Shown: positions 1,508-59,134 of the stretch, piece after piece
How positions within the stretch are numbered: position 1 is the stretch's first letter
How the letters are laid out: each line of letters begins with the position of its first letter
DNA from: a virus
Lineage: Duplodnaviria > Caudoviricetes
IMG/VR virus record: IMGVR_UViG_3300022666_000111
Direction: 5' to 3' (one strand)
Length of the DNA: 64,000 nt
The notes under the pieces: generated by a model
What the model saw: the letters and a program-made list of their open reading frames with translations, nothing else
What the model was told of the DNA's origin: nothing
Database searches by the model: none
Position numbers and translations under genes: made by a program

Positions 1508-2134
1508 ATGCGCGACCTCATCGCCCGTGTTGCTGCCCGCTATGAATGTCAGGACCTCCTTCGGCAAATCCAAGGGGGTAAGCCTGCGATCCTCGTCCTG
1601 GTCACATCCTACCCTGGGATGGACATCCGCGTTTATCCCACAGAGGACCTCCCGCCCGAAAGGGTCGCGGCGCTTGACACCTACCTCCAGGGGATCTTCA
1701 CGGCCAAGAAGATCGAAGACTACGGCCCATGTAAGGACCCCGGGGGCGCCCCGCTCTCCTACATGGTTCAGTCAGCTTGGGAGCACATCAAAGACGCCCT
1801 CTTGGGAGTCTCTTGGGAGGGGGCACCTTTCAAGCTCCTGCTCAACCCACAGCCTTCGCTCTATCCGGATGCCGAAAGGCATCACTTGGTCATCGACTCC
1901 TACGGGGAAACCTTCGAGGCTATCTTGAGGGTTCTCAAAGCCATCAAGGCGCTAGGCGACGCGGGACATTCAACCTCTGTCGACATTGATGGGAAGGCCG
2001 TTGCTGGTGTTGACGGTGACGGCGCCGACCGCATTGAGGAGATTCTCGTGGACGGTAAATCTCTAGACAGGATCGCTTCCTGTGTGGTGGCCAAGTACAA
2101 GGCCAAGAAGAAGGTCAAGACCAAAACATCTTGA
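1508..2134 (+). CDS. hypothetical protein; probable former N-terminal domain of the TopoIB polyprotein
   Basis: Starts LIARVAARY; ends VVAKYKAKKKVKTK, which duplicates the TopoIB N-terminus. Confidence 0.65.
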   Translation: MRDLIARVAARYECQDLLRQIQGGKPAILVLVTSYPGMDIRVYPTEDLPPERVAALDTYLQGIFTAKKIEDYGPCKDPGGAPLSYMVQSAWEHIKDALLGVSWEGAPFKLLLNPQPSLYPDAERHHLVIDSYGETFEAILRVLKAIKALGDAGHSTSVDIDGKAVAGVDGDGADRIEEILVDGKSLDRIASCVVAKYKAKKKVKTKTS

Positions 2135-2159
2135 CCGTGTGTAACGGTAGCGGTATGTT
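2131..2159 (+). promoter_or_regulatory. sigma70-like promoter of the HNH gene (leaderless)
   Basis: TTGACC-N17-TATGTT, 6 nt before ATG 2166. Confidence 0.55.
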
Positions 2160-2165
2160 GTCAGT

Positions 2166-3029
2166 ATGTCTTGCACTGCTGAAGGTTGCCAGGAAGTCGC
2201 GCGTATTAGGGGCTTGTGTCTGAGGCATTACCACTTGGCGCGACGGTCAGGTACCCTGGACGTCAAACGCCGGGGTCGGGCTTGCCAGGTAGCAGGATGC
2301 CCTGAACCGCACTATGCTAAGGGGTACTGCTCGGGCCACTATGACGCTTGGAAGCGGTGGGGGGATCCCTTAAAACGGGTTCGCGGACACAGAGGTGACG
2401 GTCATGTTGACCGTTTTGGCTACAGGTGGGTTTCCATTGATGGGAGGCTTGTTTTGGAGCACCGTGTCATTATGGAGGCCACCCTCGGTAGACCGCTTCA
2501 ACCAGGAGAAAGGGTCACACACCTGAATGGGGACAGATCTGATAACCGGATCGAAAACCTGAGCATCGCAACCAAAGGGTACATTTCCAAAAAGGGTCAC
2601 CGGGTACTCAGTGTTAAGGGTAAGCAAGTCCTTGAGCATCGCCTGGTTATGGAACGGCATCTTGGTAGAAGCCTTGGTGCAAATGAGCAGGTGCTGCACA
2701 GGAACGGAGATCCCCTAGATAACCGTTTGGAGAATCTCCTGATCCGCAACACCACTCCCGGAAGCTCGGATGGCTACATCTATGTGTATGTGGCAGGGCG
2801 GGGTAATGTGGCGGAGCACCGCTGGCTTATGGAGGGGATTCTAGGACGACCTTTGACATCCGATGAGAGCGTCCACCACCGTAATGGTGACCGTCAAGAT
2901 AACAGAGCCGAAAACTTGGAGTTGTGGTCAAGGTACCAGCCCTCCGGACAACGTGTGGCGGATAAGCTAAAGTGGGCGCGGGAGATAATCTCTCGTTATG
3001 GACACCTTGAGCATGCTGCGTCTAGCTGA
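2166..3029 (+). CDS. HNH homing endonuclease with three tandem HNH_3 repeats
   Basis: Repeated EHRxxME..LGR.L...E.VxHxNGDxxDNRxENL; two N-terminal Cys/His modules. Confidence 0.9.
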   Translation: MSCTAEGCQEVARIRGLCLRHYHLARRSGTLDVKRRGRACQVAGCPEPHYAKGYCSGHYDAWKRWGDPLKRVRGHRGDGHVDRFGYRWVSIDGRLVLEHRVIMEATLGRPLQPGERVTHLNGDRSDNRIENLSIATKGYISKKGHRVLSVKGKQVLEHRLVMERHLGRSLGANEQVLHRNGDPLDNRLENLLIRNTTPGSSDGYIYVYVAGRGNVAEHRWLMEGILGRPLTSDESVHHRNGDRQDNRAENLELWSRYQPSGQRVADKLKWAREIISRYGHLEHAASS

Positions 3030-3870
3030 ACGGGTTGTGGCCCGCTACCAGTCAAAACACCGCGTCAAAACGAAAGACGGGGACGAAATGGTGGTCTACG
3101 AGTATTCGGAGCGCCAGATCGCCAACCGAAACCGTAAGAAGGCGGAACGCCTCGAGAAGCTCAAGAAGAACATCGGCAACCTCCGCAAACGCGTCCAGCA
3201 GGACCTCAAGAGCAGTGACCCTGACACCATGCTATCCGCCCTGGCGGTAGCCCTCATCGACCACACGTATGAACGTGTAGGGAACGAGGAGTCTGCTGAT
3301 GATGGGCACTTCGGGGTCACCGGGTGGACCCGCAAGCACATTAGCTTCGGTCGTGGGAACGCGACGGTGAAGTACGTTGGCAAGTCCGGCGTGAAGCACA
3401 CCAAGAAGATCTCCGACGCCAGCATTCTCAAGGCCCTCAAGGATGTCTACGAGGCCCGGGAGGACGAGGACGAGAGCATCTTCACGCATGACTTGGGGAA
3501 GGTTGATGCCCGCAAGGTCAACGCCTACCTCAAGCAATTTGACGTGACAGCCAAGGACCTCCGAGGCTTCCACGCCAATCGAGAAATGCAAGAGCGCCTC
3601 AAGGAGATTCGCTCCAAGGGCAAGGCGCTATCCGAAGACAAGAAGGCCCGGGAGAAGCAGCTCAAGGCGGAATTCCTCAAAGCGCTTGAGGCAACGGCTG
3701 AGGCTGTCGGGCATGAGCCTGCGACCCTACGGTCGCAGTATTTGGTTCCGGGGCTCGAGGACGAGTACGTTAACAAGGGTACCGTAATGCCGTCCTTCAA
3801 AAAAGACGCTTCCAGTCTTGCAATACGCGTCATTCAACGCTATCTTGGGGCATGCTCAAGAAATGGGTGA
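3013..3870 (+). CDS. DNA topoisomerase IB (bacterial/poxvirus-type catalytic core)
   Basis: ERVGNE, FGVTG, YVGKSG, TAKDLRGFHAN, GHEPATLRSQY catalytic motifs. Confidence 0.9.
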   Translation: MLRLAERVVARYQSKHRVKTKDGDEMVVYEYSERQIANRNRKKAERLEKLKKNIGNLRKRVQQDLKSSDPDTMLSALAVALIDHTYERVGNEESADDGHFGVTGWTRKHISFGRGNATVKYVGKSGVKHTKKISDASILKALKDVYEAREDEDESIFTHDLGKVDARKVNAYLKQFDVTAKDLRGFHANREMQERLKEIRSKGKALSEDKKAREKQLKAEFLKALEATAEAVGHEPATLRSQYLVPGLEDEYVNKGTVMPSFKKDASSLAIRVIQRYLGACSRNG

Positions 3871-57871: not shown

Positions 57872-58177
57872 ATGCCCCAAACGTTCAAGCGCCTCTACCT
57901 CCGCGCCGTCCCCAAAACAGCCCTTCCTCGGGAGATGCCTCTTCTCGATGAATTCGAGTCGACTACGGGCTTCGACGCGGGGTCCCTCATCATCGTTCTT
58001 CGCGGGAACAAGTCACCGACCGAGGAAACCATGCGGGACATCGTGAGGATGGCGCATAGTGAGACCGGACGGGGCGTCATCGGGATCTTCCTCGACAAGG
58101 ATATGGACCTTGAGGTCTATGAGGTCGAGGAGGCCCCGGACCCCCCAAACCAATTGGAATTCGGAGAAGATTCGTGA
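57872..58177 (+). CDS. hypothetical protein
   Basis: GGTGTAG and GGAGG upstream. Confidence 0.55.
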   Translation: MPQTFKRLYLRAVPKTALPREMPLLDEFESTTGFDAGSLIIVLRGNKSPTEETMRDIVRMAHSETGRGVIGIFLDKDMDLEVYEVEEAPDPPNQLEFGEDS

Positions 58178-58476
58178 GTCGATATGCAATGCTTGCCGCC
58201 GAGCTACAGGCGGGGAGATCCGTGACCTACACGGAGCACGGTAACTCGATGACACCACGCCTCAAGGACGGCGTGAAAGTCACCGTGGCGCCAGTAAAGC
58301 CCGAGGAGATAGCCATCGGGGACATCGTATTCTGCCGCGTAGGGGGCAGCCACTTCCTCCACATGGTCAAGGCGATCGGCCAAGACGGACGCTTTCAGAT
58401 AGCGAATGCTAGGGGTTTTGTGAATGGCTGGACGCGACAAGTGTATGGGAAATTGGTTTACTATATGAACCCTTAG
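58174..58476 (+). CDS. S24/S26 peptidase-like protein
   Basis: GNSMTPRLKDG; GDIVF. Confidence 0.7.
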   Translation: MSRYAMLAAELQAGRSVTYTEHGNSMTPRLKDGVKVTVAPVKPEEIAIGDIVFCRVGGSHFLHMVKAIGQDGRFQIANARGFVNGWTRQVYGKLVYYMNP

Positions 58477-59035
58477 CCTCCCGTTCATGAGGGCAGTACC
58501 CAGCATGACCGTGGGCGAAGTTGCAATTCATACACAGCACACGGAATCCTTCCGGCCACCCCTCTTTCTTAAGCCAACGGTACAGCCCCTCACCCTTTCG
58601 GTGTCGGGCATTCCGTGGAACCCCGCCATTCCCATGAATGTGGTCGATGGTCAAAAACTCGATGTGCGCTTCCCCGCAACACGTGCAGACAGGGCCACCG
58701 TAGGCTTGAAACGACTCCATCTTGATGTCGAAGCGCTTACGTTTGAACTTTGCGCTGAGATTGGCCGCCCAGACGGGGTCCTGCATAAGGCGCTGGTGCT
58801 GTTCGCGTGCCGTCTTTTGATGCCGAAGACACATGGATGAGTCTGGTGCAGGTAGATCACCACAAAAGCACAGACCCTTCTGTCGGTTGGCATTGTGCTT
58901 TTCAGCGCGAATCTCCCGTGTACATTGCCGACAGATAGCCTGTCGCCCCGTCTTGTTGCGTTTATCTGGTGTAAAGTCCGTTAAAACGAGACTAGGATTC
59001 TGACACCGCTTACATACGTGCGTGTTGGTAGCCAT
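58409..59035 (-). CDS. HNH homing endonuclease
   Basis: YGG..CTCCGE...FLTIDHI.G.G...VLCMNCN. Confidence 0.88.
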   Translation of the reverse strand: MATNTHVCKRCQNPSLVLTDFTPDKRNKTGRQAICRQCTREIRAEKHNANRQKGLCFCGDLPAPDSSMCLRHQKTAREQHQRLMQDPVWAANLSAKFKRKRFDIKMESFQAYGGPVCTCCGEAHIEFLTIDHIHGNGGVPRNARHRKGEGLYRWLKKEGWPEGFRVLCMNCNFAHGHAGYCPHEREAKGSYSKPISHTLVASSHSQNP

Positions 59036-59062
59036 AACACAGGCGGCCTTACAAGCATTATA

Positions 59063-59134
59063 TTCAACGGACACATTAACGGCTGGACCCGCCAGGTCTA
59101 CGGCCGTCTCGTTTACTACATCAATCCTGGTTGA
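59063..59134 (+). pseudogene. displaced native 3' end of gene 58174-58476
   Basis: GHINGWTRQVYGRLVYYINPG* versus GFVNGWTRQVYGKLVYYMNP*. Confidence 0.85.

Follow-up and report, generated by a model that had tools for sequence, protein, structure and literature searches.

The 64,000-nt stretch of DNA analysed here (one strand of the IMG/VR virus record IMGVR_UViG_3300022666_000111, Duplodnaviria, Caudoviricetes; hereafter the window) carries at least six free-standing homing endonuclease genes (HEGs). Two of these are intergenic, and four, numbered HEGs 1 to 4, lie between two diverged duplicates of a short segment of a neighbouring gene. An initial annotation, made from the letters alone, had placed four endonuclease open reading frames (ORFs) at these positions, and profile searches bore this out, with Pfam for three of them and the PHROG HNH and endonuclease VII families for the fourth. 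HEG 1 (2166..3029, + strand) encodes an HNH_3 endonuclease with three HNH_3 repeats (Pfam PF13392, E = 9e-32), and its G+C fraction at third codon positions (GC3) is 0.57. HEG 2 (3852..4709, +; GC3 0.54) encodes a GIY-YIG endonuclease with NUMOD3 plus a zinc finger at the C-terminus (PF01541 and PF07460). HEG 3 (15552..16049, +; GC3 0.57) belongs to the endonuclease VII (EndoVII) family (PF02945, E = 4e-23) and runs antisense to its neighbouring genes. HEG 4 (58409..59035, −), likewise antisense, encodes an HNH/EndoVII-like His-Me nuclease; Pfam gave no match for it, and its best assignment was PHROG 2255, HNH endonuclease (E = 1.6e-12). An N-terminal zinc ribbon is common to the products of both antisense HEGs. 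The four nucleases had been described as three unrelated families. Three or four Pfam/PHROG families are indeed represented, but these amount to only two folds, GIY-YIG and His-Me finger.

The duplicates were detected by an all-against-all comparison of six-frame translations of the window. The pair around HEG 1 (case 1; the other cases are numbered after their HEGs) consists of 2042-2125 and 2992-3075 (+; 46% over 28 aa), and that around HEG 2 of 3745-3846 and 4715-4813 (+; 53% over 34 aa). In case 3 the paired segments are 16009-16059 and 15459-15509 (−; 47% over 17 aa), and in case 4 they are 58414-58473 and 59069-59128 (+; 80% over 20 aa). Flanking pairs of 20-35 aa had been reported for all four genes; pairs were present in each case, with sizes of 17-34 aa, case 3 being shorter than stated. 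As the initial annotation had described, the copy adjoining the nuclease gene (the HEG-proximal copy) overlaps the nuclease ORF and completes the host ORF in all four cases. The overlap measures 32 nt for case 1 and 19 nt for case 2; in cases 3 and 4 it is antisense and 68 nt long. Every such copy supplies a stop or start codon and has no internal stop or gap. The two intergenic genes served as internal controls. One encodes an HNH endonuclease (13801..14187, +; PHROG/profile match) and the other a GIY-like endonuclease with three NUMOD3 motifs (61777..62310, +; profile match). A scan of their flanks found no duplicates, and the best score, 17.7 bits, equalled the background median.

The window was compared with 12 relatives that lack HEGs 1 and 2 (L001-L004 and L015-L022), with one that lacks HEG 4 (L034), and with three that bear HEGs (L035, L036 and L037). 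Case 4 was settled by L034. The host gene is S24 peptidase-like (58174..58476, +; 100 aa), and its last 20 codons (58414-58473) are the working, recoded copy; its GC3 drops from 0.8 to 0.47 from about 58384. The other copy lies beyond the nuclease gene as a stranded end of 20 codons followed by Gly and TGA (59069..59134, +), orthologous to the end of the L034 gene. At 77% nucleotide identity, L034 aligns to 57853-58473 of the window and then directly to 59069-59606, so that the 655-bp nuclease-bearing block is absent. The last 60 nt of the L034 gene match the stranded copy at 51/60 positions and the working copy at 40/60. Between them, the two copies in the window share 39/60 nt; 15/20 third positions differ, and 16/20 residues are the same. 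In P0002, the closest S24-like homologue (85% identical), the terminal residues are those of the stranded copy, including the extra Gly, and not those of the working copy. An ATPase-like gene (59164..59853, +) begins 30 nt 3' of the stranded end, and L034 has the same order of stranded end, 30-nt spacer and ATPase gene. The stranded copy is the resident gene end. Among the relatives of the ATPase gene, the S24-like gene was not adjacent to the ATPase. The same 8 nt (GATGAGGC) stands directly 5' of the ATG in both the EndoVII gene and the ATPase gene (window 15527-15551 and 59139-59163).

Cases 1 and 2 lie at the two ends of a single topoisomerase IB ORF (2998..3870, +; 290 aa; PF01028, E = 1e-28). 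Upstream of HEG 1 is N208 (1508..2134, +), an ORF of no known family, whose last 14-28 residues are a native-type topoisomerase N-end. The case 1 distal copy (2042..2125, +), in frame with N208, is of this native type and is 96% identical in L037. The HEG-proximal, recoded copy (2992..3075, +) overlaps the 3' end of HEG 1 and gives the topoisomerase ORF its start codon (2998) and N-end. A 20-nt stretch encoding the Lys-rich block just 5' of the conserved DGDEM residues is invariant in nine HEG-less relatives. The left (distal) copy keeps this block and matches those nine relatives at 31-36/42 nt. In the right (recoded) copy, 8/21 positions are changed, mostly to A-ending codons, and the match to relatives is 25-30/42 nt.

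At the other end, the case 2 HEG-proximal copy (3745..3870, +; GC3 22/41) completes the topoisomerase C-end right after the active-site SxxY region and overlaps the start of the GIY-YIG gene. GC3 is 0.8-0.93 in the topoisomerase core and falls to 0.33-0.47 from about 3778, that is, over the last 30 codons. The distal, native-type copy (4715..4813, +) is in frame at the head of C149 (4703..5152, +), an ORF of no known family that was probably once the C-terminal neighbour domain of the topoisomerase. C149 has a single real relative, P0023 (in L036), and the distal-type peptide is what stands at its beginning, with a match of 38/42 nt against 27/42 for the other copy. Nucleotide identity to L036 is 82% over the distal copy against 58% over the remaining ORF, and the sequence GAGGAG-N6-ATG within that copy, with its ATG at 4739, is conserved. 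Judged by this comparison, the case 2 distal copy is no dead remnant and serves as the start region of the downstream C149 ORF.

The initial annotation had described the copies beyond the nuclease genes as native and stranded. The description as stranded fits cases 3 and 4; the distal copies of cases 1 and 2 instead read in frame with N208 and C149, the ORFs on either side. Because such in-frame remnants lie at the N208 end and the C149 head, the two cases together would have split an ancestral N208-topoisomerase IB-C149 fusion into three ORFs. In all 12 HEG-less relatives the topoisomerase IB has a single N-end and a single C-end; its domain mostly lies within polyproteins of 1300-3100 residues and is a stand-alone gene in two. 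HEG-less relatives with an uninterrupted gene, which the initial annotation had proposed as a check, were thus available for the topoisomerase in these 12 and for the S24-like gene in L034, which ends in the stranded version. The opposite outcome, a duplication without its HEG, was looked for and was not found in any relative examined.

A recurrent motif of ~17 residues, F-K-x-D-A-x-L-A-x-R-V-[VA]-x-R-[YW]-[LM], is found in the window at 1526, 3031, 3826, 4793 and 25342 (+) and at 37988 (−). Unrelated ORFs have it at their start or end, and in relatives it marks borders between modules of polyproteins of 2000-3100 aa (L003/L004). P0027, an 85% relative of N208, and P0028 exchange modules exactly at this motif, which could act as a linker, as a signal for processing or packaging, or as a joint for recombination. 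Downstream, C149 and the next ORF, which has an HD domain (5168-6052), form one reading frame with a single TAA (5150-5152) between them, and the same is seen in L036.

The host gene in case 3 encodes a small Cys-rich basic protein (15982..16131, −; 49 aa). The working copy makes up the last ~25 codons of this gene (15985-16059), which lie antisense over the 3' end of the EndoVII gene. The stranded copy lies in a frame between stops (15414..15524, −), which has the 'NGA' motif of the protein family where the working copy has 'CGA'. This frame closes with a stop codon that overlaps, within ATGA, the start codon of the gene downstream, a sigma-70 region 2-like gene (14944..15417, −; PF04542, E = 4.5e-6) that is still coupled to the stranded end. 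Such an overlap is what would be expected of a resident gene end. No HEG-less relative was found for HEG 3, and the 'NGA' motif is the one feature that bears on how close the native end is to relatives. The sigma-like gene was not found in the records of five large relatives; the small protein is there, but in other contexts.

Each insert sits at the most conserved block of its host protein. In the topoisomerase they are the Lys-rich N-end and the segment that immediately follows the active-site tyrosine motif; in the S24-like family it is the invariant N-G-W block, and in the small protein the edge of its conserved half. The strength of the duplications was assessed by scanning the window blindly at 732 pseudo-insert positions, with the best flank-to-flank score taken for each (median 17.7 bits). 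Scores of at least 29.3, 33 and 43 bits were reached at 1.4%, 0.7% and 0.4% of positions, respectively, and cases 1, 2 and 4, in that order, fall within those top fractions. When the two frames were set beforehand, one as the working gene's tail and the other as the frame that closes in the ATGA overlap with the following gene, each of the four pairs outscored 20,000 shuffles (p < 5e-5); case 3 gave a Smith-Waterman score of 44 (p < 5e-5).

Codon composition also set the two classes of copy apart. Pooled over the cases, 63/112 third positions in the HEG-proximal copies are G or C (0.56), a lower fraction than the 0.726 of the host background (binomial p = 1.5e-4). This agrees with the atypical codons noted for them initially, and the contrast was carried mainly by cases 2 and 4. 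The distal copies gave 76/112 (0.68), host-like and not significantly different from host genes. The HEGs themselves gave 0.59; all four HEGs of the cases lie at 0.54-0.57, compared with ~0.73 in host genes.

The HEGs vary in occurrence at the same sites: HEG 4 is absent in L034 and HEGs 1 and 2 are absent in the 12 relatives, while HEGs 3, 2 and 1 are found at the same sites in L035, L036 and L037, respectively. The EndoVII gene that L035 has in the same place is 81% identical in nucleotides, and the sequences flanking it are 68-70% identical. Between L037 and the window, identity is 96-97% along the left copy and the HNH gene; upstream, where L037 has a different module, it is 76-81%. The HNH gene of L037 has lost 531 bp between two CATCTTG repeats, both of which are present in the window. 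By these comparisons, HEG 1 has spread recently and is decaying in one lineage, that of L037.

Anatomy, the resident or imported status of the copies and their presence or absence among relatives are direct observations. On this basis we consider it probable that each site represents a HEG cassette, made up of the nuclease gene and a diverged 17-34-codon copy of the host gene, inserted into a conserved coding block. The imported copy, which overlaps the nuclease ORF, would restore a complete reading frame by providing a new 3' end in cases 2, 3 and 4 and a new start and 5' end in case 1, and the resident copy would be displaced to the far side of the nuclease gene. Such an insertion would most likely originate when the nuclease cuts a HEG-less allele at the conserved block. 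One broken end would then be repaired by copying a diverged donor, through the donor gene end and the HEG, and the other would be rejoined without homology, leaving the resident segment in place. The host gene would keep its function without splicing. In cases 1 and 2 the resident copies would survive in frame as the N208 tail and the C149 head, the latter kept as a translation start region. Because the original site exists at neither junction, the HEG-bearing genome would probably not be recut by its own nuclease. Self-immunity by recoding is plausible, given 21/60 nt changed in case 4 and 8/21 in the conserved block of case 1. A donor from a distant lineage would by itself account for the diverged spelling; selection for recoding is possible but would not be required. 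The donor state itself was not found: IMG/VR relatives of the HNH_3, GIY-YIG and EndoVII genes are distant (30-56%), and none lies near a topoisomerase or the small protein.

Several results weigh against insertion of such cassettes, mostly in individual cases. The case 3 duplicate is short and, at 21.6 bits, not significant by itself in the blind scan (reached at 8% of positions, p about 0.08), and GC3 does not separate its two copies. Where the copies overlap the HEG ORFs, dual coding may have lowered GC3 to some extent. A close HEG-less relative (>75% nucleotide identity) was not found for any of cases 1-3, and the ancestral fusion at the topoisomerase is drawn from the in-frame remnants and from more distant relatives. 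In L036 a GIY-YIG/NUMOD3 homologue (50% identity) stands immediately upstream of the C149 homologue (53%). This arrangement shows that case 2 is old and stable, and HEG 2 may not be mobile at present; the gene is as diverged as its flanks, with no similarity above theirs.

The same evidence bears on how else the copies could have arisen. If a target-site or tandem duplication at insertion had produced both copies in place, followed by divergence, nothing would have been imported. Both copies do lie directly at the insert borders, and the old arrangement of case 2 leaves time for divergence. However, the case 4 working copy is farther from the resident copy than is the orthologue in the 77%-identical phage (39/60 against 51/60 nt), and its third positions are near saturation (15/20 differ) while 16/20 residues have been kept. 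The GC3 of the proximal copies is HEG-like and not host-like, and the HEG and adjoining copy are 96-97% identical between genomes with flanks at 76-81%. We therefore regard duplication in place as improbable. We give even less weight to the view that the resemblance in cases 1 and 2 is only the R-V-[VA]-x-R-[YW] core of the recurrent linker motif at polyprotein module borders. This motif does occur at the six positions in the window listed above and at module borders in relatives. The duplicates, however, reach past it into the topoisomerase-specific Lys-rich N-end block and the segment after the active-site tyrosine, both single-copy in the 12 HEG-less relatives, and the case 1 and 2 scores exceed the whole-window background.

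Phage HEGs often reside in introns or inteins (PMC3943268), and removal of the inserts from RNA or protein as group I/II introns or inteins would make the duplicates irrelevant. Against this, no group I or group II intron matched in Rfam anywhere in the window, even at E ≤ 1, and Pfam detected no intein (Hint) domain in the ORFs flanking the HEGs. In addition, two of the HEGs are antisense to the host gene, and every proximal copy has the stop or start that makes a complete ORF. The inserts thus appear to be neither introns nor inteins and the HEGs to be free-standing, as the initial annotation had held, and removal by splicing is very hard to reconcile with these results. Among these readings, insertion of a HEG together with a diverged, imported gene end is the one we favour, and it bears out the interpretation offered in the initial annotation, within the limits given above.

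The window has a G+C content of 59%. Because a 341-kb contig carries the protein cluster of the window's own S24-like gene, and because the genes of the window have their nearest relatives on IMG/VR contigs that measure 350-620 kb and in some cases carry terminal repeats, the window is, on this evidence, part of a huge phage of at least 341 kb. No close relative was found among deposited phage genomes when 8 kb of the window were compared with 50,697 phage records by megablast, and no relatives turned up when viral contigs were scanned for the S24-like protein, for the sigma-like gene and for N208.

Several further features of the window were recorded. A gene for an EamA/SMR-like small membrane protein (57522-57860) is a 340-bp insertion (window 57513-57852) missing from the 77%-identical L034. 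The final 39 nt of L034 (1591-1629) match a remote part of the window (62589-62627) at 97%, which could be a chimeric assembly end or a rearrangement. Three tandem paralogous genes (32084-34544, −) are ~30% identical over ~260 aa, and a fragment resembling their C-terminal part lies at 48-272 (+). A 2H phosphoesterase gene (24784-25380, +) has a sub-threshold Pfam match to Acb1 (anti-CBASS), with the recurrent motif at its end. An element of ~50-60 nt is repeated near gene starts at 10525-10593, 13776-13838 and 14867-14950 (+ frames) and at 51267-51317 (−); it came to light because its translations in non-coding frames resemble one another, and it may have a regulatory role or act as a 5' leader common to these genes.

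That HEGs can supply duplicated gene ends in fungal mitochondria, as cited in the initial annotation, is documented. Fungal mitochondrial mORFs form gene hybrids in atp6 of Allomyces macrogynus and in atp6, atp9, cox2 and nad3 of Glomus sp. (PMC3630166), and partial C-terminal duplications of cob and atp6 lie beside HEGs in Endoconidiophora (PMC6279837). In the mORF hybrids an inserted C-end continues the gene in phase and the native one is found downstream; the two ends agree at 63.5% of nucleotides, and the native end agrees with that of a relative at 91% (PMC3630166). The layout is shared here, with an endonuclease ORF in the 3' part of the gene, a foreign in-phase end upstream and the native end kept downstream. 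Cases 2, 3 and 4 match this arrangement, and case 1 is its mirror image at the 5' end. As in the fungi, the inserted end has diverged in cases 1, 2 and 4 and the native one resembles relatives (in case 4, inserted and native ends share 65% of nucleotides, and the native end shares 85% with the relative), and the design is not tied to one nuclease family (LAGLIDADG and GIY-YIG there). The phage differs in having a huge phage as host and HNH_3, EndoVII-type and GIY-YIG nucleases, in two HEGs that run antisense and have 68 nt in common with the replacement end, and in the 5'-end replacement of case 1. It differs also in the splitting of a multidomain protein by cases 1 and 2, where the resident copies are in frame in neighbouring ORFs.

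Among phages, there is a likeness to MobA of T4-like phages, where mobA and a gene 60 bypass cassette come with HomR (Bonocora et al. 2011 via bioRxiv 10.1101/2022.08.31.505936). MobA is also a phage HNH HEG inside a topoisomerase gene, which it splits, with ORF overlaps at both ends. The insert-encoded target homologue HomR (67-81% DNA identity) substitutes there for host sequence, and relatives have decayed or lost nuclease copies. In MobA, 55-75 nt of parental sequence are deleted, whereas the parental segment is retained here in four of four cases. The MobA system further has novel CTE/NTE tails and a 50-nt translational bypass giving immunity, neither of which was seen here, and its topoisomerase is of type II whereas ours is of type IB. 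The splitting of nrdA by mobE, initially credited to T4, belongs to Aeromonas phage Aeh1; free-standing HEGs split nrdA there and gene 43 in phage 25 (PMC2988022). Those HEGs likewise break up the gene of a conserved enzyme so that its parts are translated separately, with neither intron nor intein involved, but a duplicated, recoded host segment is not in the description given in PMC2988022. In fractured genes, split inteins flank a free-standing HEG (PMC2677866). There too a free-standing endonuclease gene breaks into another gene, the two halves of which are both expressed, but through split-intein halves and protein trans-splicing, and no intein domain was found here.

The design was thus already known from fungal mORFs and from MobA and HomR of T4, and the window offers a clear new example and not a new principle; it is less novel than the initial annotation implied. 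What it adds is four cases with two internal controls in one stretch, a HEG-less relative, a decayed copy, a 5'-end version, two antisense arrangements and a displaced copy that is reused. With a HEG-less control at hand, the cases indicate that HEGs of at least two unrelated folds enter conserved phage coding sequence without an intron, an intein or ribosomal bypass, a mode of entry previously known mainly from fungal mitochondria. They also mark likely recognition sites, namely the native junctions, which are highly conserved at the nucleotide level in relatives. For annotation they carry a warning, as short orphan ORF tails or heads beside HEGs may be displaced gene ends.

The sites offer a concrete route by which selfish nucleases could break up multidomain proteins of phages and carry gene ends from one lineage to another. 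It may even be that free-standing HEGs of large phages, whatever their family, generally colonise conserved coding sites by bringing a replacement gene end, with the displaced copies co-opted, although we put this forward only tentatively and think it rather doubtful at present. If it were true, HEGs would drive the breakup of multidomain phage polyproteins into separately expressed modules, as the Shine-Dalgarno/ATG start in case 2 may illustrate.

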